The position numbers and the translations under genes were made by a program. Under the pieces are notes generated by a model that worked only from the letters and a program-made list of their open reading frames with translations, was not told where the DNA came from and ran no database searches. Positions 7,461 through 23,060 of a stretch of 64,000 nt of DNA are shown here, in pieces (the first letter of the stretch is position 1; every line of letters begins with the position of its first letter). The DNA is from Candidatus Gottesmanbacteria bacterium (GTDB taxonomy: Bacteria > Patescibacteriota > Microgenomatia > UBA10105 > UBA927), in the NCBI GenBank assembly GCA_023245335.1, contig JAHFKK010000001.1:299282-363281 (forward strand), given 5' to 3'.

Positions 7461-8984
7461 TTATTCCCATTCCATCGTTGCCGGGGGCTTCGTCGTGATG
7501 TCATAGACAACACGCGAAATTCCGGGCACCTCGTTTACGATGCGGCTTGAGATCGTCTGAAGGAGCGAATAGGGGAGTCTACTCCAGGATGCAGTCATGA
7601 TATCGACAGATCCGTATACGCGAAGTGCCACGACTTCACCATAAAATCTCCCGTCGCCCTTGACGGCAGTACTTTTGGTATCGGTCAACACCGGAAATGA
7701 CTGGAAAACTTTGTTGATCCACCCGCTTCTCCGCATTTCCTCAAGGACTATCCGGTCAGCGTGCTGTTGCCGCGCGAGCCGATCAGCCGTGACCTCGCCG
7801 ATGACGCGTATGGCCTGTCCCGGTCCGGGAAATGGCTGCTGCATAACAATGTCATTCGGGAGATGTAATTTCAAGCCGAGCTTCCGTACTTCATCCTTGT
7901 AGAGCGCGCGCAGCGGTTCGTAGAGTGTCAATCCCATTTGTTCCGGTAAGCCCCCGACGTTGTGGTGACTTTTGATTTTATCGGCGTGTTTGGTACCTTT
8001 GGATTCTATAACGTCGGAGTAGATGGTTCCCTGGATAAGGAACCGTGCGTCAGAATAGCGCCGTGCTGTCTTTTCGAAATAATCGATATAGAGCTTGCCG
8101 ATTGTTTTACGTTTTTCTTCGGGATCTGTGATTCCCCGAAGCGCCGTAAGAAAATGTTTTTTGGCGTCCACGATCTCCAGCGGCACCTTGAGAATTTCGC
8201 GGAATATATGCGTTATCGATTCGTAGTTTTCCGTCCGCATGAGACCGTTATCTATGTAAATAGGTATGAGCCGCTTCCCGATGGCACGAGAGAGGATGGC
8301 CGCGGCGACCGTAGAATCGACGCCTCCCGATACGGCAATAACAGCACGCTTGTCCCCGATGACTTCTTTTGCCGTTTGGATGAAAGTCGCGGGTTTGAGA
8401 ATGATCCGTTTGATGGGGACACCGCAGATTTCTTTGAGAAAATTGCGAATGATGAGTGAGCCGTATTTCGTGTGCTTCACTTCGGGATGAAATTGCAGGC
8501 TATATATTTTTTTATACTCGTTTTGCATCATAGCAACCGGTGCCGTCGTCGTTTTCGCGGGACTGGTGTATCCGGGAGGGGGCATGGTGACGGTGTCGCC
8601 ATGACTCATCCATACCGTGAAGTGGTTGTCGATGATATGGGCAAATAATTTGGAGGGGCCGTTTATTTCGATAACTGCCGGACCGTATTCCTTGGTGCGT
8701 CCTGGTCTTACCTTGCCGCCCAAAAGATATGCGGTGAGTTGGTGTCCATAACAGATGGCAAGGATGGGGATACCCAGAGTAAATATGTTTTTGTCGACCA
8801 TCGGAGCGCCGTTTTGGTTGACAAACGCAGGGCCTCCGGAAAATATGATGCCGTCCGGTTTTTGAAGTCTGATCTCATCCATCGCATCTTCCGGCGGCAC
8901 GATCATGACTGCGGCCCCGCATTCGCGTACGCGCCTGCCAATAAGATGTGCGGTCTGCGATCCAAAATCGATAAGTAATATCAT
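7461..8984 (-). CDS. guaA: GMP synthase (glutamine-hydrolysing)
   Basis: GATase domain (MILLIDFGSQ..) plus ATP-PPase SGGVDS. Start set to 8984 (MILLID) immediately after the stop of the upstream gene. Confidence 0.9.
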   Translation of the reverse strand: MILLIDFGSQTAHLIGRRVRECGAAVMIVPPEDAMDEIRLQKPDGIIFSGGPAFVNQNGAPMVDKNIFTLGIPILAICYGHQLTAYLLGGKVRPGRTKEYGPAVIEINGPSKLFAHIIDNHFTVWMSHGDTVTMPPPGYTSPAKTTTAPVAMMQNEYKKIYSLQFHPEVKHTKYGSLIIRNFLKEICGVPIKRIILKPATFIQTAKEVIGDKRAVIAVSGGVDSTVAAAILSRAIGKRLIPIYIDNGLMRTENYESITHIFREILKVPLEIVDAKKHFLTALRGITDPEEKRKTIGKLYIDYFEKTARRYSDARFLIQGTIYSDVIESKGTKHADKIKSHHNVGGLPEQMGLTLYEPLRALYKDEVRKLGLKLHLPNDIVMQQPFPGPGQAIRVIGEVTADRLARQQHADRIVLEEMRRSGWINKVFQSFPVLTDTKSTAVKGDGRFYGEVVALRVYGSVDIMTASWSRLPYSLLQTISSRIVNEVPGISRVVYDITTKPPATMEWE

Positions 8985-8986
8985 CG

Positions 8987-9709
8987 TTATTCCTGTCGGA
9001 CCAGAGAAAACCAATAGTTGAACCCTTTCAGCTTGAGTTTTCCCGGGCGCATGGAATCTATCGTCACGAGGGAGTAGATTTCATCGTCCCGGAATCCCGC
9101 TTGCTTGACACGTTCCCGTCCGAGGAATGGCTTTTCGATAACAAATACACAGCCGACCGGAATGGCATTTGCTTCGCGTATGATCGCCAGTAAGTCCGTT
9201 GTTGTTTTGCCGGTATCCAGAAAATCATCACAGATAAGAACCCGGCTTCCCGGAGGGAGGCAATCTTTGGCAACGACGAGTGGTACGGACATACCGTGTG
9301 TATATGAGCGGCTCTGAGTCTTATATGCATCCTGTATGGTGATGGGCATGCCTTTCGGGGCATAGATGATGTCCGGCATTGACGGAAGATTTGCGGCGAT
9401 TGCGACGCTTGGGATGTTACCGGAGGAGGGAGCCGTGAGGATAATGTCGGGTTGGAGATTGGCGACCATGAAGGCAAGTTCTTCGCCTATCGCGTCTATG
9501 AGTCTCGTATTGATGCGATGATTCAAAAAGTGCGTGACGTCCAAAACCAGAAGCGGTGACTCGGAACCCTTCAGGTGATATTCAAAGGATCGCGACTGGG
9601 TGACGAGCGCGCTCGCGAGTAGCTTTTGAGCCCGGGAATAGTCAGAAGATGAGATAAGTTGGAGTGCGGCCTTTGCTTCCGTTACCGGTAATTCCGGGTA
9701 GTCTTTCAT
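8987..9709 (-). CDS. Purine phosphoribosyltransferase, xanthine-PRT-like
   Basis: PRPP-binding motif VLICDDFLDTGKT with an N-terminal extension. ATGA overlap with the upstream PRTase gene. Confidence 0.7.
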   Translation of the reverse strand: MKDYPELPVTEAKAALQLISSSDYSRAQKLLASALVTQSRSFEYHLKGSESPLLVLDVTHFLNHRINTRLIDAIGEELAFMVANLQPDIILTAPSSGNIPSVAIAANLPSMPDIIYAPKGMPITIQDAYKTQSRSYTHGMSVPLVVAKDCLPPGSRVLICDDFLDTGKTTTDLLAIIREANAIPVGCVFVIEKPFLGRERVKQAGFRDDEIYSLVTIDSMRPGKLKLKGFNYWFSLVRQE

Positions 9710-10284
9710 GTCAGGTGATGTTTTCGGACAAATTTAATTTGTTTGTCGGTATACCCTAGTGTCTCGAGAAATGTCTGGATTTCCGCCTTTGTTTTCCCTT
9801 CTGCCGTCATTTTTTTCGTGAATGTGTATATCCATTCGGTCACCTCAAACGGTTGCAGGAGCCATTTCGTCGTACGGGTCGCGAAATAATCCGGCTGTAC
9901 GCTAGAGTGCGGCTTGTAAAACAATGTAGCGATCGTTATCACGTGCGGCCGAAAGCGTTTGAGATAAGAGACGGCGCGGGTGAGCGTTTTGCCGGTATCG
10001 GCGATGTCATCAACCAGTAAGACTCGTTTCCCGGCAATACGCGATGAGAGTCCTGCTGTAATTTCTACCTGACCCTGTTTTTGAATGTCCGTATAGCTTT
10101 GAATAGTGATAGAAGAGATGGGGACACGCAGAAAGTCAGATAATATGTGCCCGAAAGTGAGACCGCCGCGGCCGATCGCGACGATAATATCAAAGGGTTT
10201 GTCATGAACAATGATCGCTGCCGCAAGTTTTTGTGAGAGGTTTTGGTAGTCGTTCCAGGAAACCGGGAGGTATTGGACGTGCAT
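9706..10284 (-). CDS. Purine phosphoribosyltransferase, Hpt/Gpt-like
   Basis: VLLVDDIADTGKT PRTase motif; 192 aa. TTGACA-N18-CATACT sits 5 nt before the ATG on the minus strand. Confidence 0.75.
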   Translation of the reverse strand: MHVQYLPVSWNDYQNLSQKLAAAIIVHDKPFDIIVAIGRGGLTFGHILSDFLRVPISSITIQSYTDIQKQGQVEITAGLSSRIAGKRVLLVDDIADTGKTLTRAVSYLKRFRPHVITIATLFYKPHSSVQPDYFATRTTKWLLQPFEVTEWIYTFTKKMTAEGKTKAEIQTFLETLGYTDKQIKFVRKHHLT

Positions 10285-10332
10285 ACGCTAGTATGCGGGT
10301 GAATCGGCGATTTTGTCAATAATTATTTTCGC

Positions 10333-10361
10333 TTGACGAATACGGGGGCGGCTTTATAATA
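10333..10361 (+). promoter_or_regulatory. sigma70-like promoter (TTGACG-N17-TATAAT) ending 5 nt before the ATG at 10367, so leaderless
   Basis: Sequence reading only. Confidence 0.45.
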
Positions 10362-10366
10362 GGTGC

Positions 10367-10990
10367 ATGGCATCCCGGAAAGCAAAAAAAGCATCCTCGT
10401 CGTTTAACTATGCCAGCATCGCGATTTCCGGCCCTCCGGGAGCGGGAAGGTCCACACTCCTTAAGAATCTCCGACCGTATTTAGAGACTATCGGATGGGA
10501 TTTTTTTTCCGGTGGGGAATGGAGTAGGAAATACGCCATAGATAACGGCATGCACGATCCCCGTGATCCCAAGCACCATTTAGCTACGGACTATGGCGAT
10601 GATGTGGACAACGAGATAGACGCAGCGATGCGTAAAAAAATTTCCGATCCGAACGTGCATATGGCGATCGAAAGCTGGATTGCCGGATGGAATGCGCGGG
10701 GTATTCCGCACGTACTGAAAGTATTACTCATGTGTGATGATTCACTCCGGATCGATCGCATCGTCAACCGCGATGACGTGTCTGTTGAGGAAGCGAAATT
10801 GCATTTGCGTCAGCGGGAAGAGGCAAATCTGACGAAATGGAAGCGGATGTATAATACTGAAGATTTTTGGCATCCCAAACATTATGACCTCATTATAAAT
10901 ACATACTCCCACGGCCCCGCCCAGACGCTCGAAATCGTACTTCAGGCGCTCGGGTATTACAAAATTAACGGCCAGCCGAAGAGTAAATAG
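10367..10990 (+). CDS. P-loop nucleotide kinase-like protein (cytidylate-kinase-like family)
   Basis: Walker A ISGPPGAGRST; about 207 aa. Confidence 0.5.
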   Translation: MASRKAKKASSSFNYASIAISGPPGAGRSTLLKNLRPYLETIGWDFFSGGEWSRKYAIDNGMHDPRDPKHHLATDYGDDVDNEIDAAMRKKISDPNVHMAIESWIAGWNARGIPHVLKVLLMCDDSLRIDRIVNRDDVSVEEAKLHLRQREEANLTKWKRMYNTEDFWHPKHYDLIINTYSHGPAQTLEIVLQALGYYKINGQPKSK

Positions 10991-11006
10991 GTGGTCCGGT
11001 TGATCT

Positions 11007-12185
11007 ATGAAGCAGCGGAAGATATTCGGTTTTCCCTCAAACGTATTTTTCCTTTCTGTGGTGTCGCTTTTTAACGATATCGGCGGCGAGACGATTAAAA
11101 AAACCATCCCGTTATATTTAGCAAACGTCCTCGGAATACCCGCCACCATTATAGGACTCATCGAAGGTGTCGCGAGTGCGACGCCTCAATTATTGCAGCC
11201 GGTTTCGGGTTATTTGTCGGACGTGACGCATGCCCGAAAGCCATTGGTTGTTATAGGTCAGGCGTTGCGATCTGCCATGGTAGCGCTTTTTTGGGCGACG
11301 TCCTGGCCGAGTATATTCATTATCCGTTTATTGGATCGTGGGGGAAAGGGTATTGCTGAAGCCCCCCGTGATGCATTAGTTTCCAGCTCGGCGGAGAAAG
11401 GACATGTCGGAAAAGCTTTTGGTCTCACGAGAATGTTTGATAACGCGGGTGCCGTTATCGGTTTATTGCTCGCAAGCGTCATAGTCTGGTACACCGCGCA
11501 TGCGACGGTGACGCTGACTACCTCGCTTTTCCATTCGATAGTTTTACTATCGGTTATCCCACTTTTACTGAATATCGGAATATTGGCAGTATTAGTCCAT
11601 GATGTGCCAAAAAACAGGGACGACATATCTACGGAGAAGCGGAAAGGATTGGGGCCGGTATTCTACCGATTTTTTGCCCTATCGATCCTTTTTACGATCG
11701 GAAATTCGTCTGACGCATTCATAATTTTACAGTCACAGAGGACCGGGCTTGCGGTTTGGGCGATATTTCTCTTGCTCGCAGGGTATAGTCTGACGTCGTC
11801 ACTTTCTGCAGTGCCGCTTTCCGCCCTGTCCGACAGGTTGGGAAGGAGAACGCTTCTTATCATAGGATGGTTATATTACGCGGTCATCTATTATGTCCTT
11901 GCCGTGGTCAAAACACCACTCGCCGTCTCCATAACCGTGCTTATGTACGGTATTTATTATGGTTTCACCGAAGGGAGTGCGCGTGCCTATATTGCTGATT
12001 TGGTTCCAACCCGCCTTCGGGGTACGGCGTACGGTTTGTATAACATGGGAACGGGGATAGCTCTTTTTGCCGCTTCCCTCATCGCAGGGTACTTATGGCA
12101 GGCTATTTCTCCGTCTGCCACATTCTATTTCGGAAGTGTAGCCGCGGTTCTTGCGGGACTTGGGTTGCTTTTTGTCGTGCATTAA
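11007..12185 (+). CDS. MFS transporter
   Basis: About 12 predicted hydrophobic helices; 392 aa. Confidence 0.75.
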   Translation: MKQRKIFGFPSNVFFLSVVSLFNDIGGETIKKTIPLYLANVLGIPATIIGLIEGVASATPQLLQPVSGYLSDVTHARKPLVVIGQALRSAMVALFWATSWPSIFIIRLLDRGGKGIAEAPRDALVSSSAEKGHVGKAFGLTRMFDNAGAVIGLLLASVIVWYTAHATVTLTTSLFHSIVLLSVIPLLLNIGILAVLVHDVPKNRDDISTEKRKGLGPVFYRFFALSILFTIGNSSDAFIILQSQRTGLAVWAIFLLLAGYSLTSSLSAVPLSALSDRLGRRTLLIIGWLYYAVIYYVLAVVKTPLAVSITVLMYGIYYGFTEGSARAYIADLVPTRLRGTAYGLYNMGTGIALFAASLIAGYLWQAISPSATFYFGSVAAVLAGLGLLFVVH

Positions 12186-12208
12186 TCCGTAGGTCTTTCA
12201 TTATATAT

Positions 12209-12781
12209 ATGATTCCGACACCAAATGAGGCGAAGGTATTGTGGGAAGACTATTCGCTTCCGGACACCAAGCGTAATCATTGTCTTTGGGTGGCTCATCT
12301 TGCCGTGTGGTTTGCCCGGAAGATTTCGTCACAGGGAGTCTCAGTAGATGCCGGTCTTCTCGAAGTTGCAGCGCTCCTTCATGATGTTGATAAAGCTATC
12401 CCGCGACTCACAGGTGAGCGGCATCCGGACACGGCTGTCCGCATACTACGGGAGCGGGGGATGGGAGAGGTTGCGGACCTGGTCAGAACACACCCTCTTC
12501 ATGCGATACTCGATCAAAACCTGTCACCCAAATCTTGGGAAGAAAAAATTCTCTACCTTTCCGATAAGATGGTCAAACATACAATCATTACGGTTGACGA
12601 ACGGTTTGCCTTATGGCGGGCGGAGCATCTCCCGCCAGCTGCAATCTCGGAATTAGACGCTGCATACCCATTGGTAAAATTGCTTGAGAATGAACTGTGT
12701 TCATTCATAGGGATGCAGCCTTCGGATGTGGTAAAACTTGCATCAAAAGATGAAACGAGTACAATGAATTCACCCGTATAA
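12209..12781 (+). CDS. HD-domain phosphohydrolase
   Basis: H..LLHDVDK motif. The internal start at 12209 avoids overlap with the MFS gene. Confidence 0.7.
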   Translation: MIPTPNEAKVLWEDYSLPDTKRNHCLWVAHLAVWFARKISSQGVSVDAGLLEVAALLHDVDKAIPRLTGERHPDTAVRILRERGMGEVADLVRTHPLHAILDQNLSPKSWEEKILYLSDKMVKHTIITVDERFALWRAEHLPPAAISELDAAYPLVKLLENELCSFIGMQPSDVVKLASKDETSTMNSPV

Positions 12782-12791
12782 GGAGGAACTC

Positions 12792-13361
12792 ATGAAAAAA
12801 TATATATCATACGTTTCCGTATTCCTGGTTATCTTTTTTTCCGTTCCACTTCTTACATCCGTTTTTCATGAGACCGTGGTAGCCGCAATGGCAAAAGTTA
12901 CGACGACAGCCAAGGCCCCGGTACCGACGCCGACAGTAGCCCCTTCCCGTGTAGAGTATTCATTGCCCTACCCCGGTATACTTCCGGACAATCCACTCTA
13001 TGTATTGAAAACATTTCGGGATAAGATCATCGAGTTGCTCGTATCCGATCCCATCAATAAAGCTGAGTTTTACATCCTTCAGGCAGATAAAAAACTGAAT
13101 ATGAGCATTGCATTAACCGGAAAAGGTAAATCCGCAGAGGCACAGGAGATGATGGCGCAGGCGTTGATCGCACGGACCCAAGCGGTCACGTTACTGGAAA
13201 CAACCGCACAGTCGGGGAGAGTGATACCTGATTTTGTTCTGGAGAAGTTGACGTTATCATTGAAAAAACATCAAGAAGTGCTCGCAGACATGAAGCAAAA
13301 CGTTGACGCGGTAGCCACTCTTCTTGCGAAAGCAGAGAAGCTTATACCCCAGTCTAAGTAA
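12792..13361 (+). CDS. Secreted hypothetical protein with signal peptide and a YSLPYPGILPDNPLY motif
   Basis: N-terminal hydrophobic signal; AAGGAGG SD before the ATG. Confidence 0.5.
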   Translation: MKKYISYVSVFLVIFFSVPLLTSVFHETVVAAMAKVTTTAKAPVPTPTVAPSRVEYSLPYPGILPDNPLYVLKTFRDKIIELLVSDPINKAEFYILQADKKLNMSIALTGKGKSAEAQEMMAQALIARTQAVTLLETTAQSGRVIPDFVLEKLTLSLKKHQEVLADMKQNVDAVATLLAKAEKLIPQSK

Positions 13362-13572: not shown

Positions 13573-13601
13573 TTGACTCCCCACGATTAGTGTCTTAGGA
13601 T
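13573..13601 (+). promoter_or_regulatory. Candidate promoter TTGACT-N17-TAGGAT for the nrdR-nrdJ operon, followed by NrdR-box-like sites
   Basis: Sequence reading only. Confidence 0.35.
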
Positions 13602-13640
13602 TTTGATTGGCACAACATATAGTGCCTTTTATTTTCACGG

Positions 13641-14096
13641 ATGAAGTGTCCATATTGCACGAATACTGATACAGAAGTCATCGAAACGAGGGACAGCGAA
13701 GATCTGGCAGTCACACGCAGGCGTCGTACCTGTGCCAAGTGCGGGAAGAGATTTACGACGTACGAACGGATAGAGTCGATGCTTTTGACCGTTATAAAGA
13801 AAGACTCACGAAGAGAGCCATTTGATCGGGACAAACTCGCACGCGGTATTTGGCGGGCAAGCGGAAAAACGATGATTAAGGCAGAAGACGTGCGCCGGGT
13901 CGTCGACGAAGTAGAGCGAGAACTTATAGGCGGCAACACGACGGAAATTAAAAGCAAAAAAATAGGAGAACTGGTTGCTAAGAGGTTGAAAAAAATAGAT
14001 AAGATAGCGTATATCCGGTTTGCAAGCGTGTTTCGGCACTTTGTAGACCTGGAGGATTTCGAGGGAGAATTAAAAAAGTTGATTAAAAAGAAGTAA
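13641..14096 (+). CDS. nrdR: Transcriptional repressor NrdR
   Basis: MKCPYC..CAKCGKRF zinc ribbon followed by an ATP-cone domain; 151 aa. Confidence 0.9.
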   Translation: MKCPYCTNTDTEVIETRDSEDLAVTRRRRTCAKCGKRFTTYERIESMLLTVIKKDSRREPFDRDKLARGIWRASGKTMIKAEDVRRVVDEVERELIGGNTTEIKSKKIGELVAKRLKKIDKIAYIRFASVFRHFVDLEDFEGELKKLIKKK

Positions 14097-14099
14097 CGT

Positions 14100-16574
14100 A
14101 TGGATAATTTTACCGGTATCCGCCAAACAGTATTTGCAGACCGCTACGCACTAAAAAATGAAGCAGGTACCGCTATTGAACAAACCCCAGAAGAAATGTG
14201 GCATCGAGTCGCCCGCGCTATCGCTAAGGTAGAAAAAAAGGCAGATAGGGCGAAGTGGGAGGACGAATTTTACGAAGCCATGAAAGACTTCGTGTTGGTG
14301 CCGGGCGGGCGGATTCTTTCCGGAGCCGGTACGGGGTATAAGGTCACGTTCTACAATTGTTTTGTCATTCCGAGTCCCCATGATTCCCGTCAAGGAATCC
14401 TTACAACACTCTCGCAGATGGTTGAGATCATGTCGAGAGGCGGAGGAGTCGGTATAAACCTTTCGAGTTTGCGTCCGAGAGGTTCGCGGGTGCGGAAAGT
14501 AAACGGGTTTTCTTCCGGTCCGTGTAATTGGGCGGAGCTTTTTTCCGTCGCGACACGCGATATCATCCAGCAGGGCGGGAGTAGGCGCGGGGCGCTCATG
14601 CTCATGCTCTGGGATTGGCATCCGGATGTCGAAGAATTTATCACAGTAAAACAGGATCTCGCCAGGATAAATGGTGCTAATTTGTCCGTGTGTGTTTCGG
14701 ACGAATTTATGACCGCGGTCAAAAACGATGCCGACTGGGATCTCAAGTTTCCGGATACGCATGATCCGGACTACGACACGAAATGGGATGGGTATTTGCC
14801 GAACTGGATAGCACTAGGGAAAACGCCGATCGTCAAAAAAACCATCAAGGCACGTGCGCTGTGGGATTTGGTCGCAACCGCCGCATGGAAAAGCGCAGAG
14901 CCGGGTGTCGTTTTCATGGAGCGCTACAATAAATGGTTTAACAATAATTATTTTGAGTACGTCAATTGTGTGAATCCCTGCGGCGAGGAAGGATTGCCGA
15001 ACTGGGGTGTGTGTAACCTCACATCCATCAATTTATCTTCGTTGGTCAACGAGAACGGCGAGATGGATTTCGAACGACTCGCGCGCATAGCCAAAGTGGG
15101 CGTCCGGTTCCAGGACGATATCATAAATGCAGACACGTACATTTTTGACCAGATTAGAAAAGTGCAACTTCAGGGAGAGCGGCGGATAGGATTGGGGACC
15201 ATGGGACTCGGAGATGCGCTTATCAAAATGAAACTACGGTACGGTTCCGAAGAAAGTTTGGACGTGATCGACAAAATTTACCGGACCATACGGGATGCGG
15301 CATATGAGTCATCCATCAATCTCGCGAAAGAAAAGGGTCCGTTCCCGAAGATAAATAAGACGAAGCATGTCGCGGGATACTTCATACGCCAACTGCCGGA
15401 ACGTCTTAAGAAACAGATGAAGAAATACGGCGTCCGTAATTCGATGGTACTTCAGCAGGCGCCGACCGGCTCAACCTCGCTCATGGCCGGTGTGTCATCC
15501 GGAATTGAACCTGTTTACGAATTCGAATTTTTGCGCCGGGACCGGTTGGGCGAGCACACACTCCGACACCCGTTGTACGATGCGTGGTTTGAGTCGTTTA
15601 AAGAAAAAAACGGCCGTGAACCCACCAAAGAAGAACGGCCTGATTATTTCGTTTCCGCAAATGATCTCAGTCCGGAAGACCACGTCCGCGTCCAGGCGAT
15701 GATTCAAAAGTATGTTGATGCATCGATCAGTAAAACCGTCAACGCACCCCGTACACACACGGTAGAAGACGTGAAGCGTTTGTATACGCTTGCGTACGAC
15801 TTGGGATGTAAAGGGATAGCGTACATGCGGGAAGGAAGCCGCGAAGGGGTTCTCGTACGTAAAGAAGAAGCGCCGAAGGTAGAAGTGAAGCAGGAAGCCG
15901 TGATGTTGCCGGAAGTAAAGCCCCGACCTGCGGTCGTGCACGGATCGACCTACCAGATGGAAACTCCGATGGGACAGGCATATATCACGATCAACACAAA
16001 CGGCGGAGGACATCCCCACGAGTTGTTTGTCAATGTCGGTAAAGCCGGAAGCGATGTCACCGCCATGGCAGAAGCATTAGGGCGGCTCATATCGCTCATC
16101 CTTCGTATATCATCACCGATTTCACCCACGGAACGGATCCACAAAGTAGCGGCAGAGCTTATCGGTATCGGCGGCGCCCGAAGCCTTGGTTTTGGAGAAA
16201 ATCGTGTCAGGAGTCTGCCGGACGCTATAGCGAAAGCCATTGATAGGCATTTCGGATTTTTCAAAAAGCAACACGTTGATAGTCTTGTGGTAACTCCCGG
16301 GGCCGGGGATGGGATGATGACGAACGGTCATACCAATGGGAACGGGAATGGAAACGGTCATGCGGCTGCGATTCTTTTGAATGGTCACACCAACGGACAT
16401 ACTATACCTACGGAATCAGCAACGACTCCCGTAATCCCGACACCGCAACACGCATTTATCGCGACTTCCCCCCGTATGGTGACCGTCGATCTCTGTCCGA
16501 GCTGCGGCGAGGGAAGCCTGGTGTTTGAGGAATCCTGCAAAAAGTGTTACAGCTGCGGATACTCCGAATGTTAG
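14100..16574 (+). CDS. nrdJ: Class II (adenosylcobalamin-dependent) ribonucleotide reductase
   Basis: 824 aa with the NPCGE active-site motif, an (NGH)n low-complexity insert and a C-terminal Cys4 zinc ribbon. Adjacent nrdR and the downstream PduO-type adenosyltransferase support the B12-dependent class. Confidence 0.8.
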   Translation: MDNFTGIRQTVFADRYALKNEAGTAIEQTPEEMWHRVARAIAKVEKKADRAKWEDEFYEAMKDFVLVPGGRILSGAGTGYKVTFYNCFVIPSPHDSRQGILTTLSQMVEIMSRGGGVGINLSSLRPRGSRVRKVNGFSSGPCNWAELFSVATRDIIQQGGSRRGALMLMLWDWHPDVEEFITVKQDLARINGANLSVCVSDEFMTAVKNDADWDLKFPDTHDPDYDTKWDGYLPNWIALGKTPIVKKTIKARALWDLVATAAWKSAEPGVVFMERYNKWFNNNYFEYVNCVNPCGEEGLPNWGVCNLTSINLSSLVNENGEMDFERLARIAKVGVRFQDDIINADTYIFDQIRKVQLQGERRIGLGTMGLGDALIKMKLRYGSEESLDVIDKIYRTIRDAAYESSINLAKEKGPFPKINKTKHVAGYFIRQLPERLKKQMKKYGVRNSMVLQQAPTGSTSLMAGVSSGIEPVYEFEFLRRDRLGEHTLRHPLYDAWFESFKEKNGREPTKEERPDYFVSANDLSPEDHVRVQAMIQKYVDASISKTVNAPRTHTVEDVKRLYTLAYDLGCKGIAYMREGSREGVLVRKEEAPKVEVKQEAVMLPEVKPRPAVVHGSTYQMETPMGQAYITINTNGGGHPHELFVNVGKAGSDVTAMAEALGRLISLILRISSPISPTERIHKVAAELIGIGGARSLGFGENRVRSLPDAIAKAIDRHFGFFKKQHVDSLVVTPGAGDGMMTNGHTNGNGNGNGHAAAILLNGHTNGHTIPTESATTPVIPTPQHAFIATSPRMVTVDLCPSCGEGSLVFEESCKKCYSCGYSEC

Positions 16575-16586
16575 GATAACTATCAT

Positions 16587-17168
16587 ATGCCCATCTATAC
16601 CCGTACCGGGGACTCCGGTTCCACGTCGCTTTTTGGCGGTAAACGCGTCCTCAAATGCGAGGAGCTTGTCGATGTGTATGGATCTATCGATGAACTGAAT
16701 TCCTGGATCGGACGCATCGGGTCAGAACTTGAGTCTCTTGACGTGCAGCAGTTTTTAGCTGCCATACAATCAGATCTTTTTACCGTCGGCAGCCACCTTG
16801 CCGGTTGGAAGACGGATCTTTCTGTTTTACCAAAACGGGTGAAAGAAATGGAAGCGCGCATTGATATTTTGGAAACATCACTCCCGGCACTCAAGAATTT
16901 TATTCTCCCCGGAGGGACGCCGCTCGCTTCGGAAATCCATTTGGCGCGGGCTGTCTGTCGCAGGGTAGAACGGCAAACCGTCGCGTTAGGTCAAAAACCC
17001 TCCTCCGCTAAAGCTTCGACGGGCAGGCAGGAGGTCGACCCCAGAATTCTTGAGTATCTCAACCGATTGTCGGATCTTCTTTTTATGCTCGCACGATTCG
17101 TCAATAAAGAAGAAGGAATTGTAGAAACAGTGTGGAGCGGTATTGACCGCAACCAGAAAAAGAAGTAA
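16587..17168 (+). CDS. ATP:cob(I)alamin adenosyltransferase, PduO type
   Basis: The N-terminal MPIYTRTGDSGSTSL motif is characteristic. Confidence 0.8.
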   Translation: MPIYTRTGDSGSTSLFGGKRVLKCEELVDVYGSIDELNSWIGRIGSELESLDVQQFLAAIQSDLFTVGSHLAGWKTDLSVLPKRVKEMEARIDILETSLPALKNFILPGGTPLASEIHLARAVCRRVERQTVALGQKPSSAKASTGRQEVDPRILEYLNRLSDLLFMLARFVNKEEGIVETVWSGIDRNQKKK

Positions 17169-17185
17169 AAGTAGCTACGTAGAGA

Positions 17186-17270
17186 TTTGAGGAACGCTGT
17201 GTAATTCAGCGACTGTGCCGCAACGGTAACCCGTCTCGACTCGAGGCTGGAAGTCCGGAACTCCCCTCTA
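17186..17270 (+). promoter_or_regulatory. Candidate compact cobalamin-riboswitch-like element upstream of the DUF4430 gene
   Basis: Ordered partial matches to cobalamin aptamer elements: GAGGAA..GCUGUGUAAUUCAGC (GGUG..AA..CC-like hairpin), GCGACUGUG (cf. GCCACUG), and AGUCCGGAACUCCCC (B12-box-like). The CUCCCC run could pair with the AGGAGA SD at 17285-17290. Weak and unverified. Confidence 0.3.
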
Positions 17271-17293
17271 CGCATATCCCGAGCAGGAGATTT

Positions 17294-17713
17294 ATGAAAA
17301 AGATATATGCCGTCATTGCGGCGGTCCTCATTATAATAGGTATTGAAGTTTTCCGTGCGCGTATTCCTTCCGTACCGAACCATCAGACTTCCATTTCTTC
17401 GACTATTTCTCCCGCGCCCATAGTTTCAGTCGTTATAGATGATAGCACGCATATCGCCACATATTCGGCGGTAATGGCTGTGACTCCGTATGCTTCGTTG
17501 CAGGCGGTTATGGATGAGTTACATATACCGGTCACCGTCAAACGGTATGACTTTGGTGTTTTTGTCGACGGAGTGGGCGACAAAAAAAATACAAGTGATC
17601 GGGCTTGGATATATTTTGTGAATGGAATTTCAGGTAATGTCGCTTCCGATGAGATGAAATTACACGCGGGAGACGCCGTCACGTGGCGGTATATGAAGCC
17701 CGCAATGGAGTAA
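17294..17713 (+). CDS. DUF4430-like (transcobalamin/intrinsic-factor beta-domain-like) membrane-anchored protein, putative B12 binder
   Basis: N-terminal TM. C-terminal W.YFVNG...L..GD.V.W.Y pattern (AWIYFVNGISGNVASDEMKLHAGDAVTWRY). Confidence 0.55.
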   Translation: MKKIYAVIAAVLIIIGIEVFRARIPSVPNHQTSISSTISPAPIVSVVIDDSTHIATYSAVMAVTPYASLQAVMDELHIPVTVKRYDFGVFVDGVGDKKNTSDRAWIYFVNGISGNVASDEMKLHAGDAVTWRYMKPAME

Positions 17714-17717
17714 AACT

Positions 17718-18224
17718 ATGTTAGAGCTCGTCGTCCTTACAGCTATTGGTGTCATGTCGCGTTTGTTGCCGCACGTGCCGAACTTTACGGCGGTCGGAGG
17801 AATCGGACTTTTTTCGGGGGCCCGATATGGGGTGAAGAAAGGTCTCGTTGTGACAGGCGTCACCATGTTTATTTCCGATGCGATTGTAGGATTTCATCCG
17901 TTGGTATGGGCGACGTACGGAAGTTTGCTCGCTTCGGTTTTGCTGGGCGCGGCTTTCCTGAAGCGGCGTGATGGCTATCGCATTGCTGCATTCACGATCG
18001 GTTCCGGTTTGTTGTTTTTCATTGTGACGAATTTTGCCGTATGGGCGCAAGGACTGTGGTATCCGAAGACGGTAGCAGGACTTATAGACTGTTATGTGAT
18101 GGCGATCCCATTTTTACGCAATTCATTATCAGGAGATGCGTTTTATAGCGCTCTTCTCTTTGGTATAGAAGCGATAAGTGTTGTGAGGATTCGCCGTCCG
18201 TCAGGAGCGATAGAGGGCGCGTAA
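17718..18224 (+). CDS. Small polytopic membrane protein, possible ECF-type S component (CbrT-like) for cobalamin
   Basis: 168 aa with 4-5 hydrophobic helices. It abuts the DUF4430 gene by 4 nt. Context-based assignment. Confidence 0.4.
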   Translation: MLELVVLTAIGVMSRLLPHVPNFTAVGGIGLFSGARYGVKKGLVVTGVTMFISDAIVGFHPLVWATYGSLLASVLLGAAFLKRRDGYRIAAFTIGSGLLFFIVTNFAVWAQGLWYPKTVAGLIDCYVMAIPFLRNSLSGDAFYSALLFGIEAISVVRIRRPSGAIEGA

Positions 18225-18229
18225 TTTGT

Positions 18230-20224
18230 ATGGAAAAACCCGCACCGATGTTTGATCGATTCAACCGATATACGAAGACCGACTCATACGACCATGGACA
18301 AGGTGTCCAGTATAACGAGCGGATGATCGCCCGTGGGATTCCGGTGGTGAGTGACAAGAACGAGTCATCCGACAAACCGGTTTGGCGGGGGGACCATTCT
18401 TTTAACTCCGATGCTGCTTCGTATTCACTTATGCATTTCATAGAGCCGGAAGTTGCCTCCCAGCACCCGGACTGGGGCATAGAAAAGGTCAAAAAGGAAG
18501 CGCGAAATAGATTTACCCGCAGACTCGCCCAAGATCTTTCGTATGAAAATAGAGAAAACGATCATGAGGAAACCGTCGTCCAATGGCACCCGATAACAAC
18601 ATCAGACGGGTCGGTAGAGCTTGCGACAGAATACGGCGATGGGATGATTACGCTCAAGGAATTATGGAAACATACGAAAGAATATGCGGTGTTTGTCGGT
18701 AAACCCGAGGCATATAACCAGGAGGAAGAACGCGTGCAGCTTACTATGCAGGATGCGTTTGTCCGCGGCTCGTCGACGGGATTTGTGAGCGTCATAAGTC
18801 ATCCCGATGCCGTTCGGTATGTGCAGGTTTGGGAGAAAGCGCCTGACGGGGAAATTACATCAAAGCAAGTGGATCTTTTTTCGACAACCGGGAGAGATTT
18901 TTCGAAGGAAGAAAGTGAGAGGCTCATAGAGCATCTTGCAGTTTTTGACGGACACACGTCAATCGATGTCCGGCTGCCGGATTCGTCATATACGCATGTA
19001 TTTGTGGAGCGTGGTGCCGTCAAAGAACAAAATATTAGGATGATCGCTACGGCATTGGTGATGCAGCATGAGTATCATGCCGAAGCAGGTTTGTCAGAGT
19101 CGGTCATTCATATGCGGGATGCTCGACCCAAAGTCCGGGAAGCTGCGGACTCCATGGTGCTTTTAGGGCGGTTTCTGCATGATCACATATCAGAAACACT
19201 TGATAGGCTCAAAAATATAGACAGTAAAAAAGCGCCAAAGGATGCTGTCCCGATACATCCTGCGAGCAGGCGACCGCTTGAGCATCGAATCAAGAGAGGG
19301 CAAATATCCGCCGCGGAATCCATACTGCATGTCATATCCAGGTCCGAACAGTCACCCAAGAGAAGGATAGAGAGGGGTGAAAAACCCGTACACGCGGCTA
19401 TGGCGGAATGGTTTATATCGCAAACAATAGTTACAAATAGCAGGGATCTTCCGGCAGGACCGCATGCCGCTCTCTATTGGTTTAGTCTGCTCGAAGAGCG
19501 TGAAAGTCTCCAGTCGAGAGCGCCGTCTTTTGTAGATAAGCCAACTACGGAAACCCAAGTTGCCACATCACCGAACGTTTCTCCGTTAAAACATATTTGG
19601 GAGACCGTTTTTTTTGGGTTGCGACAAATACTTGCGCCCGGACGAAACGGGGAGACCATACTGACGAAAAAGAAAGATAGCGTGACAAAGAAAATAAAGC
19701 CGTCCGGGAACGAAGCATCTCGGCGACTCATACGGGCGCCGGAGCTATTACAGGTGTTCTTTCGTGGGGTACGTGATCGTTTTCAGAAGTTTATTCACGT
19801 TCCCTTGTACGTCAGGGAAGCCGCTCGAGTGATCGGTGTACCAAATCAGAATACAGAACTTCCGTTTGTGCCAAAAGAGAATAGAGAACTGCCGGCCGTG
19901 TATGTAAAAAGTCTTGAGGTTGCATGGGTTGTCTGGTATATGCTCCGGGCAGACAGAACATCCTCCGGGAAAGACGTGCCAGCACGAAATAGCGTAGGGA
20001 AAATTCCGTTATTGGTTCGTCGTGAAGTCCGAGCTACGGATCACCATGAAGAAGAAACTATGTGGGTGCTCCTTGGGATCATACGATACCTTACTCTTTT
20101 ACGGGAATCAGGGAGGGGAGGGCACATACAGGGAGTCCGGGCTAAACGGAATAAAGCGCGTCAGGCGTTGGGCTTCCGTACGATTTCCCGTGCCCGGGCC
20201 ATAATATTTACGATCGCTTCATGA
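18230..20224 (+). CDS. Large hypothetical protein (664 aa), no recognisable domain
   Basis: Long ORF in an operon with the TraD/VirD4-like ATPase. No TM segments and no Walker motifs. Confidence 0.6.
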   Translation: MEKPAPMFDRFNRYTKTDSYDHGQGVQYNERMIARGIPVVSDKNESSDKPVWRGDHSFNSDAASYSLMHFIEPEVASQHPDWGIEKVKKEARNRFTRRLAQDLSYENRENDHEETVVQWHPITTSDGSVELATEYGDGMITLKELWKHTKEYAVFVGKPEAYNQEEERVQLTMQDAFVRGSSTGFVSVISHPDAVRYVQVWEKAPDGEITSKQVDLFSTTGRDFSKEESERLIEHLAVFDGHTSIDVRLPDSSYTHVFVERGAVKEQNIRMIATALVMQHEYHAEAGLSESVIHMRDARPKVREAADSMVLLGRFLHDHISETLDRLKNIDSKKAPKDAVPIHPASRRPLEHRIKRGQISAAESILHVISRSEQSPKRRIERGEKPVHAAMAEWFISQTIVTNSRDLPAGPHAALYWFSLLEERESLQSRAPSFVDKPTTETQVATSPNVSPLKHIWETVFFGLRQILAPGRNGETILTKKKDSVTKKIKPSGNEASRRLIRAPELLQVFFRGVRDRFQKFIHVPLYVREAARVIGVPNQNTELPFVPKENRELPAVYVKSLEVAWVVWYMLRADRTSSGKDVPARNSVGKIPLLVRREVRATDHHEEETMWVLLGIIRYLTLLRESGRGGHIQGVRAKRNKARQALGFRTISRARAIIFTIAS

Positions 20225-20228
20225 TAGA

Positions 20229-20681
20229 ATGAAATTAATGACTGATACACTGCCCCAATCAAATCCGGCATCACCAAATCCTCCCCCGGGAGCGGTGCCG
20301 CAGCCGACAAGCGGCAGCATGGCGAAAGAAACAGGCCCGCATATCAGCTTCGTGGAAGCCCCGCTGGTGACTGAAGTAGGTCAGGAGACGCCTCTTTCGG
20401 ATGAAGTCGCAAAGGCTGGCGTGACGATCCGACCAACGACCGTGACTCTCCCGCCCTCCGTCCAAAAGCTGGGGGTGAAGGTGCTAGGTGAGGGGACTCC
20501 TGCGTCCGCGTCAAAGACCGCTACCCCGCTTCCTTTGACCGATGATCAGATTGCGACCGGATTACATCAGAGCATCAAAAGTTCGTGGCGGTGGCTTGCG
20601 GAATGGTGCGTCCGTCAGTTAAAACAGGCACATGTCCTGCTGAAGTCATTTCATGGAAAAATCGTGCGGCTCGATGAGTGA
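20229..20681 (+). CDS. Pro-rich hypothetical protein (150 aa)
   Basis: ORF between the 664-aa protein and the coupling-protein-like ATPase. Confidence 0.45.
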   Translation: MKLMTDTLPQSNPASPNPPPGAVPQPTSGSMAKETGPHISFVEAPLVTEVGQETPLSDEVAKAGVTIRPTTVTLPPSVQKLGVKVLGEGTPASASKTATPLPLTDDQIATGLHQSIKSSWRWLAEWCVRQLKQAHVLLKSFHGKIVRLDE

Positions 20682-20708: not shown

Positions 20709-23060
20709 ATGCCAATAGAATTTGCAGATATCATCTATCGGTTAGAAGTGTTGGGCGTGGTGTTGGTTATTTTGACTATGTGCGTGGTCGGACTTGCCGT
20801 GGTCGCGTACGTCGTTTTCCTCTTCTGGAAATATCGCGATCGCGAGAAACGATCACTTGATTATGTCCTCATGCAGATAGCTACTCCCCGTGACAATGAA
20901 ATAAAGATTGATGCCGCCGAGCAGTTATTTGCCAGTCTTTCCGCGATCCGTCACGGAGGGTTCTGGTCGTTTCTGAAGCCGCAGGAGCATATGTCGTTTG
21001 AAATCGTTGCGAAACGGGAAGATATCAGATTTTATGTGGCGGTACCCAAGCATTTGGTTGACCTCGTTGAGAAACAGATCCACGGGTCGTATCCGGGCGC
21101 TGATGTGAAGCAAGTCGATGAATACAATATTTTTAGTGAAAAGGGTAAGGTCGCATTTGCGGCACTTATTCCCAAAAATTCCGACTATCTGCCGATCCGC
21201 ACGTACCGTGATTTACCTGTTGACCCATTGTCCTCGCTTACCTCGAACCTTGCGAAGATGGGTGAGGATGAGGGGGCTGCCATACAAATCCTCATCCAGC
21301 CCGCAGACAGTAAATGGAGTAGTTTGGGTCGATCGTATATAGCCAAAACCAAAAAGAATGAAGCGAATCCTGAAAAAGCGAGTTTCAAAGTAGACCCGAA
21401 GACGCTTGAATCCATCGAACAAAAAACGTCGAAACCCGGATTTAATACCGTCATTCGTTTGGTCGTCAACGCCGCCACAAAAGAAGCCGCCGACGCGAAT
21501 CTGGAGAACCTCGAGACGTCATTTCATCAGTTCACATCTGATCATAATCATTTTTCCAAAGTGAAACATCCGTTAAAAAAGTTTTTTATGATAGATTTCG
21601 TATATCGGTATTTCCCAATTGCAAATTTCCCGTTTTTCAAGCAGTACGGCGTCCTCAACAGTGACGAGCTGGCATCAATTTATCATCTGCCGAATAAATT
21701 GATTGAGACCGCGCATATTTTTTGGCTGAATGCCAAGCGGGCTCCCGCTCCAATGCAGATTCCGTCGAGCGGGTTATTTTTGGGCGTGTCCCGGTATAGG
21801 GGCGTCGACCGGCCGATATTTGTGAGTGATGAAGACCGGAGGCGCCATCTTTATGTCATAGGGAAAACGGGTACCGGAAAATCACAACTCTTGGAAGAGT
21901 TGGTGCTACAGGACATGAGAGCGGGAAAGGGACTCGCGGTCATAGATCCGCACGGAGACCTTATCGAAGGAATACTGGAGCGCATGCCTGCCGAACGGGC
22001 AGAGGATGTCATCTATTTTGATCCTTCCGATACCGACCGTCCCGTGGGACTCAATATGATCGAGAGTCATAGTGAACAGGAGATGCATTTTGTGGCGACG
22101 TCCATCGTCGGACTCATGTACAAACTGTTCGACCCGATGAAAACCGGCATCATCGGTCCCCGATTCGAGCATGCGATACGAAATGCCATATTGACGGTAC
22201 TTCAGGCGATGTCCGGGGGTACGTTTATTGAAGTCGTTCAGGTATTACAGCGGCCTGACTTTGTGCAGGAACTTCTGCCCCGGGTGTCGGATCCTATCGT
22301 CCGCCGGTACTGGACCGATCAGATCGCCCAGACGGCGGATTTCCACAAATCCGAAGTTCTGGACTACATCGTTTCCAAATTCGGCAGATTCATTACCAAT
22401 AAACTCATGCGTAATATCATCGGACAATCACAGTCGACACTCGATTTCCGTAAAGCGATGGATGACGGCAAGATACTGCTGGTCAACCTCGCCAAAGGAA
22501 AACTTGGGGAAGAAAACAGTAACTTTTTGGGGCTTATCCTCGTGCCGAAAATATTGATTGCCGCCATGAGCAGGCAGGATATACCGGAAGAAAAGCGTCG
22601 TGATTTCTATCTCTATGTCGATGAGTTCCAAAACTTCGCCACCCCTGATTTCGCGCAAATACTTTCCGAGGCCCGGAAATACCGCTTGAACCTGATCGTC
22701 GCAAACCAATTTATCGGTCAGATGGAAGAAGAGGTAAAAAATGCGGTTTTCGGAAATGTGGGAACGCTTATCACATTCCGTATCGGAGTGACGGATGCCA
22801 ATTACATTCAGCACGAATATACACCGACGTTTAATGAGACCGATCTTATCAACATTGATAAATATAATGCCTATGTCAAAACGATTGTCCACAACGAACC
22901 GGTGAAGCCGTTTAGCATTGATCTCACGAAAGATATGTCAAAAGTTATGGAAACACAGAATCTTGAAGTGGCCAAAGCAGTGGTTCAGTTATCCCGCCTC
23001 AAATACGGGAAGCCGAGGGAACTTGTGGAAGCGGAGATTACCGAACGTGCGAGACTATAA
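20709..23060 (+). CDS. TraD/TrwB/VirD4-like type IV coupling-protein-family ATPase
   Basis: N-terminal TM helices, Walker A GKTGTGKS and Walker B LYVDEFQNF; 783 aa. Confidence 0.75.
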   Translation: MPIEFADIIYRLEVLGVVLVILTMCVVGLAVVAYVVFLFWKYRDREKRSLDYVLMQIATPRDNEIKIDAAEQLFASLSAIRHGGFWSFLKPQEHMSFEIVAKREDIRFYVAVPKHLVDLVEKQIHGSYPGADVKQVDEYNIFSEKGKVAFAALIPKNSDYLPIRTYRDLPVDPLSSLTSNLAKMGEDEGAAIQILIQPADSKWSSLGRSYIAKTKKNEANPEKASFKVDPKTLESIEQKTSKPGFNTVIRLVVNAATKEAADANLENLETSFHQFTSDHNHFSKVKHPLKKFFMIDFVYRYFPIANFPFFKQYGVLNSDELASIYHLPNKLIETAHIFWLNAKRAPAPMQIPSSGLFLGVSRYRGVDRPIFVSDEDRRRHLYVIGKTGTGKSQLLEELVLQDMRAGKGLAVIDPHGDLIEGILERMPAERAEDVIYFDPSDTDRPVGLNMIESHSEQEMHFVATSIVGLMYKLFDPMKTGIIGPRFEHAIRNAILTVLQAMSGGTFIEVVQVLQRPDFVQELLPRVSDPIVRRYWTDQIAQTADFHKSEVLDYIVSKFGRFITNKLMRNIIGQSQSTLDFRKAMDDGKILLVNLAKGKLGEENSNFLGLILVPKILIAAMSRQDIPEEKRRDFYLYVDEFQNFATPDFAQILSEARKYRLNLIVANQFIGQMEEEVKNAVFGNVGTLITFRIGVTDANYIQHEYTPTFNETDLINIDKYNAYVKTIVHNEPVKPFSIDLTKDMSKVMETQNLEVAKAVVQLSRLKYGKPRELVEAEITERARL

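Follow-up and report, generated by a model that had tools for sequence, protein, structure and literature searches.

The membrane proteins that take up vitamin B12 are still unidentified for most prokaryotes, and BtuCDF is absent from about half of the B12 auxotrophs (PMC6072759). A survey from 2023 names only BtuBCDF, BtuM, Rv1819c/BacA, and CbrT as known importers (PMC10378866). The btuM gene co-localises with btuB and btuR, the BtuM protein combines binding with decyanation, and metabolic trapping by adenosylation has been proposed for this transporter (PMC6072759). Among B12-binding proteins, DUF4430 is the C-terminal domain of the TCN proteins (PMC4350170). Here we describe a B12-related locus (positions 13573-18224) in a 64-kb stretch of DNA (64,000 nt, referred to as the window) from a Candidatus Gottesmanbacteria bacterium. 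The locus contains nrdR, nrdJ, and pduO followed by genes encoding a DUF4430 protein and a DUF6580 membrane protein, and absences reported below hold for the window.

The locus is probably a B12 "acquire, activate, use" cassette, arranged on one strand as two regulatory units, in which the DUF4430 protein would capture a corrinoid and the DUF6580 protein would import it, likely without an energy-coupling factor (ECF) module. DUF6580 is thus viewed as a probable corrinoid importer that is widespread and uncharacterised. An initial annotation, made from the sequence alone, had proposed a cassette leading from B12 uptake to B12 use. That idea is supported and extended by our results, except that a riboswitch in the pduO/DUF4430 gap divides the genes into two regulatory units and they do not form one plain operon. 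New here are the riboswitch, the regulatory logic of two units, and strong evidence from comparison across loci for DUF6580 as a probably ECF-independent importer distantly related to CbrT.

Families were assigned from Pfam and NCBIfam/TIGR profile scores relative to the curated cut-offs, and labels such as L004 or L086 denote loci from other genomes retrieved for comparison. All five gene-family assignments score above the cut-offs. These include the assignments of the two small proteins, on which the initial annotation had staked its reading and for which it had suggested profile searches. The features that carry the argument are the following:

17178-17272, + strand: aptamer of a cobalamin riboswitch (class II, similar to Rfam AdoCbl-II), P6 of which carries an inserted variable hairpin
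17277-17289, + strand: expression-platform box TCCCGAGCAGGAG, 13 nt, containing the Shine-Dalgarno sequence of the DUF4430 gene (GGAG, 17286-17289)
17294-17713, + strand: DUF4430 protein (PF14478, 39.0 bits against 23.8) with an N-terminal transmembrane helix, a linker, and an ectodomain at about residues 41-139
17718-18224, + strand: DUF6580 membrane protein of 168 amino acids (PF20221, 148 bits against 27, E=3.5e-43), a putative S-component-like corrinoid transporter

Organisation and conservation of the locus

The five co-directional open reading frames (ORFs) of the initial annotation were recovered with exactly the same coordinates. The junctions between them measure 3 nt (nrdR/nrdJ), 12 nt (nrdJ/pduO), 125 nt (pduO/DUF4430), and 4 nt (DUF4430/DUF6580), and the gene string runs past 18224, as ORF6 begins 5 nt after the DUF6580 stop codon. 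The identical locus is present in several independent assemblies. The nearest named relatives are Candidatus Gottesmanbacteria, Levybacteria, and Woesebacteria (Microgenomates), all of which are candidate phyla radiation (CPR) bacteria. The order nrdR-nrdJ-pduO-gap-DUF4430-DUF6580 was found again in at least seven other genomes (L004, L005, L006, and L086-L089), in which the DUF6580 proteins share 46-60% identity with that of the window in global alignments and 48-64% by local BLAST or tblastn. A short contig (L084) has the pduO-to-DUF6580 order as in the window, and permuted orders are seen in L011, L034, and L038. The recurrence of the gene order in at least seven other genomes indicates that the arrangement is selected and did not arise by chance. 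A search of the window found no cob/cbi gene, no second ribonucleotide reductase (RNR), and no ATP-binding cassette (ABC) or ECF ATPase, in agreement with the earlier statement that B12 biosynthesis genes are missing from it.

Fold and remote homology of the DUF6580 protein

The 168-residue protein had been proposed to be a CbrT-like ECF S component, and its fold and remote homology agree with the S-component and CbrT parts of that proposal. An AlphaFold2 (AF2) model contains six helices with a predicted local distance difference test score (pLDDT) of 94.2. The top nine fold matches of this model in the PDB are all ECF S components (RibU, ThiT, FolT, PanT, and others), seven of them with TM-scores of 0.5-0.69 and probabilities of 0.66-1.0 and two weaker ones with TM-scores of 0.41. 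When the DUF6580 profile was searched against all PDB chains (hmmsearch, E<=10), the single match was chain A of 6FNP (E=0.035), the 182-aa membrane chain of the B12 ECF transporter ECF-CbrT. HHalign of DUF6580 against an alignment of the CbrT clade gave a probability of 90.8% (E=1.2e-6) over 68 columns that cover transmembrane helices TM1-TM3, and the motifs R..P.PN..PV and M..S[D/N]...GF are common to both. Single-sequence phmmer searches of PDB sequences with the DUF4430 and DUF6580 proteins (ORF4 and ORF5) returned noise only.

The family assignment itself departs from the initial proposal, as the protein belongs to DUF6580 and not to PF12822. ORF5 matched neither PF12822 nor PF07155 at E<=0.01, and of 32 DUF6580 members two reach PF12822 and four reach PF07155, all marginally (best E 0.017 and 0.27, respectively); a CbrT fragment itself matches PF12822 at 1.5e-8. 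The invariant residues of DUF6580 are R15, H19, N22, D54, G58, W109, Y115, G121, P131, F132, and F148. There is no invariant cysteine; the commonest one (28/32, C125 in the window protein) lies in the short fifth helix, H119-128, and not in loop 3. By analogy with the cysteine ligand of BtuM, H19 (in the PH.PN loop after helix 1) and C125 are candidate cobalt ligands. The NCBI product name of the protein is "putative transport protein", and the literature searched for DUF6580, PF20221, and PF14478 returned no mention of them.

Distribution and genomic context of DUF6580

DUF6580 comprises 5,191 clusters at 50% identity (E<=1e-10) and spans many phyla, with at least 598 species-level genomes that carry it. 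For a test of genomic context, 80 DUF6580 loci were all scanned with Rfam at gathering thresholds, and their neighbours were grouped by unbiased clustering. At least one riboswitch of the cobalamin clan is present in 48 of the 80 loci (60%), and 53 of the 55 aptamers lie on the DUF6580 strand. DUF6580 therefore belongs to the B12 regulon. The neighbours found were:

TonB-dependent receptor, adjacent on the same strand: 31/80 loci
DUF4430, at position -1 (immediately upstream of DUF6580): 15/80 loci
PduO: 11/80 loci
NrdJ: 9/80 loci
Dph6-like ATP-pyrophosphatase: 7/80 loci
DUF5074: 6/80 loci
BtuF-like Peripla_BP_2: 4/80 loci

The typical operon in diderms consists of a riboswitch, a TonB-dependent receptor, in some cases DUF5074, DUF6580, and in some cases a BtuF-like or Dph6-like gene. 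Adjacent BtuC/BtuD or ECF genes were found at none of the 80 loci. In a diderm operon that has the receptor and lacks BtuCD and ECF genes, DUF6580 thus takes the slot of the inner-membrane transporter. BtuM was arrived at by the same argument, as its gene is co-localised with btuB and btuR.

Several loci have further features of note. Two cobalamin riboswitches can flank DUF6580, one before DUF6580 and one before the next gene, which usually encodes a TonB-dependent receptor (L047:5688-5885 and 6563-6760; L044:5727-5865 and 6486-6625; L062:5712-5842 and 6461-6599; L069:168-315 and 960-1155). Dph6-like genes (PF01902, Diphthami_syn_2) stand directly beside DUF6580 in the seven loci counted above, among them L012 (5262-5960), L031 (4789-5958), L032 (5122-5937 and 6480-7154), L035 (6477-7217), and L055 (2812-3600), and several of the operons with such a gene open with a cobalamin riboswitch. 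We know of no role of Dph6-like ATP-pyrophosphatases in B12 salvage. BtuF-like Peripla_BP_2 genes lie beside DUF6580 without ABC genes of the BtuC/BtuD type in L041 (6485-7629), L012 (6516-7845), L031 (6528-7757), and L035 (7402-8550), which hints at a binding protein that delivers B12 to an S-component-like carrier.

The remaining part of the initial proposal, dependence on an ECF module, was examined through the EcfT-docking motif AxxxA in TM1, which is present in only 3 of the 32 aligned DUF6580 members and is missing from the window protein. As the motif is lacking and no ECF module lies nearby, "ECF-dependent" is not supported. It is accordingly unlikely that DUF6580 is a conventional group II ECF S component that depends on a shared EcfA-EcfA'-EcfT module from another part of the genome, even though the protein has the S-component fold and is specifically, if remotely, homologous to CbrT, which itself works with an ECF module. 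In group II ECF transporters the genes for the shared module typically lie at a distance from those for the S components, and our evidence is limited to 64 kb of a 1.2-Mb genome, so both points count for a distant module. The zero of 80 loci with an adjacent module, the lack of any ABC ATPase gene in the window, and the abundance of the family in diderms within riboswitch-BtuB operons, a pattern described for the ECF-independent BtuM, all count against it. We therefore favour import by DUF6580 that would be independent of an ECF module.

The DUF4430 protein

PF14478 was matched by the window protein, as listed above, and by all six homologues found, in line with the proposed family. All DUF4430 partners of this kind share an architecture in which one hydrophobic helix at the N-terminus and a linker precede a single domain of about 75-90 amino acids. 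In the AF2 model the mean pLDDT values of blocks in the domain are 86-96, apart from residues 111-120, where the value falls to 69. A Foldseek search with the modelled ectodomain gave as best match the bacterial DUF4430 structure 3U7Z (E=4e-5), and the next 17 matches were all transcobalamin (TC), intrinsic factor (IF), or haptocorrin (HC) structures with a probability of 1.00. Among these is the isolated human TC beta-domain with cyanocobalamin (5NP4), and the TM-score is 0.68 to both 5NO0 and 5NP4. The relation to the beta-domain of transcobalamin and intrinsic factor, which the initial annotation had proposed, thus holds at the level of the fold. From the modelled fold we infer that the DUF4430 protein may capture a corrinoid. 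The Bacteroides protein BtuH, considered as a possible DUF4430 protein, was dropped as a comparison, as the paper on it describes a B12-binding domain without known structural homologues and does not mention DUF4430.

The pair could belong to the B12 regulon in a role other than corrinoid import, such as uptake of cobalt or cobinamide, export of corrinoids, or a membrane processing step such as decyanation. In other bacteria, cobalt transporters and biosynthesis genes are likewise under the control of cobalamin riboswitches, BtuM joins binding with decyanation, C125 (28/32) and the invariant His19 are possible cobalt ligands, and Dph6-like genes accompany DUF6580 in seven loci. We nevertheless regard such a role as improbable. 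Cobalt alone would be useless here, as the window has no cob/cbi genes and its only visible B12 consumers are NrdJ and PduO; the TonB-dependent receptors, BtuF-like proteins, and adenosyltransferases next to DUF6580 point to the uptake of corrinoids; and the DUF4430 partner has a fold known from binders of whole cobalamin.

The cobalamin riboswitch

The pduO/DUF4430 gap (17169-17293), the only long junction of the locus, holds a riboswitch that the initial annotation missed. In a permissive search of 7.5 kb, Rfam model RF01689 (AdoCbl-II) matched positions 17179-17271 with 29.8 bits (E=8e-4). At the gathering threshold, an Rfam scan of the whole window reported only a tRNA and nothing in the gap, because the aptamer scores below this threshold. 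The invariant core of the aptamer, CTGTGCCGCAACGGTAA, is common to above-threshold aptamers of relatives. In this core, GAGGAA is followed by a hairpin and then by ACTGTGCCGCAACGGTAA, and the core motif is CTGTGCCGCAAC. Above-threshold aptamers are located upstream of DUF4430-DUF6580 in L013, L021, L053, and L063 and between nrdJ and DUF6580 in L011, and L034 also has, at an equivalent position, an above-threshold aptamer with an identical core.

Six close relatives have a pduO/DUF4430 gap that can be aligned with the gap of the window, giving seven orthologous gaps in all. Independent minimum free energy folds of five of the seven yielded the same P1, P2, and P3 together with the variable P6 hairpin, and those of L086 and L005 yielded only P3. 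Across the seven gaps 97.2% of the cells are paired as compared with 36-52% in slid controls, compensatory changes occur in 11 of 21 aptamer pairs, and the observed values were reached in none of 500 shuffles. This covariation shows that the cobalamin riboswitch at 17178-17272 is real. A first RNAalifold consensus from a heterogeneous set of 10 sequences had given only P3 and P5 with misaligned 3' halves, and the alignment of orthologous gaps was used instead.

The box TCCCGAGCAGGAG ends 4 nt before the ATG of the DUF4430 gene in the window. Six of the seven orthologous gaps keep this box, and L088 has a degenerate copy. Downstream of the box, L005 and L087 have a hairpin with CTCGGG and then a T-run, resembling a terminator-like platform. 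A partner for the CCCGAGCAGGAG box, which contains CCCGAG, was looked for among the aptamer loops, and none could be assigned. Given the Shine-Dalgarno sequence within the box, the riboswitch of the window would exert translational OFF control on the DUF4430 gene.

A mere adjacency of the five genes, with small proteins that have nothing to do with B12 and a riboswitch that is a chance match, might be suggested by the score below the gathering threshold and by DUF families without proven function. It is effectively refuted by a gene order that at least 10 genomes share, by covariation that no shuffle or slid control approaches, and by riboswitches at 48 of 80 DUF6580 loci with 53 of 55 aptamers co-oriented, and we give this explanation almost no weight.

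The nrdR-nrdJ-pduO unit

The first unit and the sites in front of it are as follows:

13573-13601, + strand: promoter-like site TTGACT-17-TAGGAT from a consensus scan, overlapping the NrdR-box region; weak, as counts are not above shuffled controls
13578-13593, no strand assigned: candidate distal NrdR half-box TCCCCACGATTAGTGT, read directly from the sequence, of which only the 3' half fits the consensus
13610-13625, no strand assigned: proximal NrdR box GCACAACATATAGTGC, with 2 mismatches to the degenerate NrdR-box pattern, 16 nt before the nrdR ATG
13641-14096, + strand: nrdR, transcriptional repressor with zinc ribbon and ATP-cone (TIGR00244, 173.9 bits against a cut-off of 124.65)
14100-16574, + strand: nrdJ, class II (adenosylcobalamin-dependent) RNR by profile (TIGR02504, 570.5 bits against 399.95)
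16587-17168, + strand: pduO, PduO-type ATP:cob(I)alamin adenosyltransferase (TIGR00636, 182.4 bits against 108.45)

The identities given to these three proteins in the initial annotation are upheld by the equivalog scores. In NrdR, PF22811 matches residues 1-42 and PF03477 matches residues 50-135. NrdJ has the RNR N-terminal (PF00317), barrel (PF02867), and TSCPD (PF12637) domains, and the class I model TIGR02506 scores it at only 353 as compared with 570.5 for class II; neither a radical-generating small subunit (NrdB/F) nor an activase gene was found in the window. The enzyme is therefore predicted to depend on adenosylcobalamin. PduO is matched by PF01923 over its full length (positions 1-171 of 171, E=1.6e-53).

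Two details of NrdJ had been described differently. Its C-terminus does not hold a Cys4 ribbon; it has six cysteines (C799, C802, C813, C816, C819, and C824), invariant across relatives, in the motif CPxCG...CKKCYSCGYSEC. The unusual (NGH)n insert does exist as a stretch rich in N, G, and H. It is, however, a low-complexity linker that differs in length and composition in every relative, and Tandem Repeats Finder (TRF) detected in it only a 12-nt repeat of 1.9 copies, so the insert was rejected as a functional feature.

Sites with at most three mismatches to the NrdR-box pattern number only six in the whole window, and boxes at the equivalent position upstream of nrdR were found in L004, L006, L011, and L034. 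The distal half-box precedes the proximal box by 32 bp, and the spacing of the tandem boxes in L006, L011, and L034 is 31-32 bp. On the + strand the consensus scan found no promoter-like site from the nrdR/nrdJ junction (14079-14108) to 20692, so none precedes the riboswitch. It also found no convincing terminators, and the counts of promoters and terminators are not above those in shuffled controls. This evidence weakly suggests, as the simplest model, a single transcript that would read through from the nrdR promoter, with the translational riboswitch as an internal element.

Proposed mechanism

In the cassette as we envisage it, the nrdR-nrdJ-pduO unit would be repressed by NrdR at the upstream boxes according to the nucleotide pool. 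Demand for deoxynucleoside triphosphates would lift the repression, and NrdJ and PduO would be made. When cobalamin is scarce, the Shine-Dalgarno sequence of the second unit would be open and both the DUF4430 binder and the DUF6580 carrier would be produced. The membrane-anchored DUF4430 protein would expose its transcobalamin-beta-domain-like module outside the cell, capture a corrinoid, and hand it over to DUF6580. The carrier would then move the corrinoid across the single membrane of a monoderm-type cell, plausibly by an S-component-like toppling motion without ATPases, as in BtuM. The PduO-type enzyme would convert the imported corrinoid to adenosylcobalamin, the cofactor that NrdJ needs, and adenosylation together with binding to NrdJ would trap the cofactor in the cell. 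Once cobalamin is replete, its binding to the riboswitch would sequester the box containing the Shine-Dalgarno sequence and turn off the translation of DUF4430, and with it that of the coupled DUF6580 gene and perhaps of ORF6, so that uptake would stop.

Several observations weigh against this reading of the locus. The aptamer score of the window lies below the RF01689 gathering score of 36.5, and 32 of the 80 DUF6580 loci have no riboswitch, at least eight of which, though not all, are truncated contigs. The Foldseek E-values of the S-component matches are weak (0.2-1.5), even if the probabilities and TM-scores are good, and the homology to CbrT spans only about 68 columns (TM1-TM3) in a comparison with a CbrT alignment built from truncated sequences. 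Nothing in the promoter and terminator scan decides whether the two units share a transcript. The literature searched has no measured transport or binding for any DUF6580 protein or bacterial DUF4430 protein. Finally, the evidence covers the window, and an ECF module, cob genes, or another RNR could lie elsewhere in the genome.

The cassette reading can be extended from this locus to the whole family. In that extension DUF6580 would be a new, very widespread family of corrinoid importers independent of an ECF module and fed by a dedicated extracytoplasmic binder, which would be the membrane-tethered DUF4430 protein in monoderm CPR bacteria; in diderms its place would be taken either by a BtuF-like protein or by the BtuB pathway. 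We advance this generalisation tentatively, as a possibility that we rate as somewhat doubtful.

ORF6 and neighbouring genes

One further gene may belong to the riboswitch-controlled unit:

18230-20224, + strand: ORF6, 664 amino acids, with no known domain; an uncertain third member of the unit

Neither ORF6 nor its positional equivalents have Pfam or NCBIfam matches. ORF6 is part of a fast-evolving family that holds the same position in relatives; direct BLAST of ORF6 to most of the positional equivalents failed, and only transitive links were found. The ORF6-family member of L004 is preceded by its own cobalamin riboswitch (L004:6504-6614), and the genes at the ORF6 position in L034 (7092-7216) and L038 (7115-7192) also have a riboswitch, with no detected similarity to ORF6. 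ORF6 may therefore be a third B12-regulated component, and the riboswitch-controlled unit perhaps continues into it.

Upstream of nrdR, positions 7461-13361 form a nucleotide-salvage neighbourhood with genes for GMP synthase, two phosphoribosyltransferases, an AAA_18/cytidylate-kinase-like protein, a major facilitator superfamily (MFS) transporter, an HD phosphohydrolase, and a DUF5667 protein; the part with the kinase, HD, and DUF5667 genes is syntenic in L088. The downstream block encodes an unknown protein of 150 amino acids (20229-20681), a DUF8128/TrwB-like P-loop ATPase of 783 amino acids (20709-23060), and a PreATP-grasp protein (23148-24542). This block is conserved in CPR relatives and is syntenic with the B12 cassette in L004-L007, L011, L038, and L086-L088. 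The records of L005, L006, L007, L021, L034, L038, and L072 are titled "uncultured Gammaproteobacteria". Their proteins are closest to those of Microgenomates, and several of the records share the CPR-specific order nrdR-nrdJ-pduO-DUF4430-DUF6580-ORF7-TrwB-like. Judged from these sequences, the gammaproteobacterial labels are probably wrong.

Significance

CPR bacteria, with their tiny genomes, rely on cofactors that they scavenge. In this locus the one B12 consumer in sight is the RNR, which supplies all DNA precursors, and a minimal transcobalamin-like binder would be wired directly to it. Together, the riboswitch and the putative binder and transporter are a concrete, cloneable three-part system with which B12 acquisition by ultra-small symbionts could be studied, and the DUF4430 protein could serve as a bacterial single-domain model of the vertebrate B12-carrier fold. 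The locus points to DUF6580 as a further, large, and uncharacterised family of B12 importers with a CbrT-like N-terminal half. In diderms DUF6580 sits at the place expected for BtuCD, and if the proposed function is true, the family would fill much of the gap of the "missing inner-membrane B12 transporter". Its substrate would then also come from a dedicated extracytoplasmic binder, which would set it apart from every known transporter of the S-component type.

Comparison with known systems

The aptamer resembles the class II cobalamin riboswitches (RF01689, AdoCbl-II; clan CL00101) in its helices, its conserved core, and its position upstream of B12 transport genes, and close relatives of it pass the family threshold at the same position. 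It differs in the hairpin insertion of 25 nt in P6 and the divergent P2, which bring the window copy below the gathering score. The first unit is like NrdR-regulated nrdJ operons in that nrdR lies directly upstream of the RNR gene and putative NrdR boxes are found in the promoter region. It differs in the addition of a cofactor-activating enzyme and in its fusion to a riboswitch-gated module for the putative uptake of the cofactor.

The DUF4430 protein shares Pfam PF14478 with 3U7Z and with the beta-domains of transcobalamin, intrinsic factor, and haptocorrin, and its model superimposes on them with TM-scores of 0.67-0.68, normalised to the isolated domains, at a root-mean-square deviation of about 3 A. 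The isolated TC beta-domain binds cyanocobalamin according to the title of PDB entry 5NP4. The vertebrate proteins also have an alpha-domain, whereas the window protein is a beta-domain alone that is tethered by an N-terminal membrane helix, and sequence identity is 8-16%.

CbrT of Lactobacillus delbrueckii (PDB 6FNP, PMC5997447) and the DUF6580 protein are both small membrane proteins of about 170-180 amino acids with the six-helix S-component fold and a link to B12. CbrT belongs to PF12822 and PF07155, has the AxxxA motif, works with EcfAA'T, and has no dedicated extracytoplasmic binding partner, whereas ORF5 belongs to PF20221, lacks the motif, and has no ECF module nearby. In its genomic logic DUF6580 matches BtuM of Thiobacillus denitrificans, an S-component-like protein that stands alone and transports B12 with no ECF module (PMC6072759). 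BtuM is encoded next to btuB and to an adenosyltransferase gene, and of the 80 DUF6580 loci 31 have a TonB-dependent receptor, 11 have PduO, and 48 have the riboswitch. The two proteins are nevertheless distinct, as no BtuM chain matched the DUF6580 profile at E<=10, BtuM is not among the top fold matches, and Cys80 in loop 3, which BtuM needs as a cobalt ligand, has no counterpart in DUF6580. The 131 BtuM homologues are found mainly in alpha-, beta-, and gamma-proteobacteria (PMC6072759), whereas DUF6580 comprises more than 5,000 clusters in many phyla.

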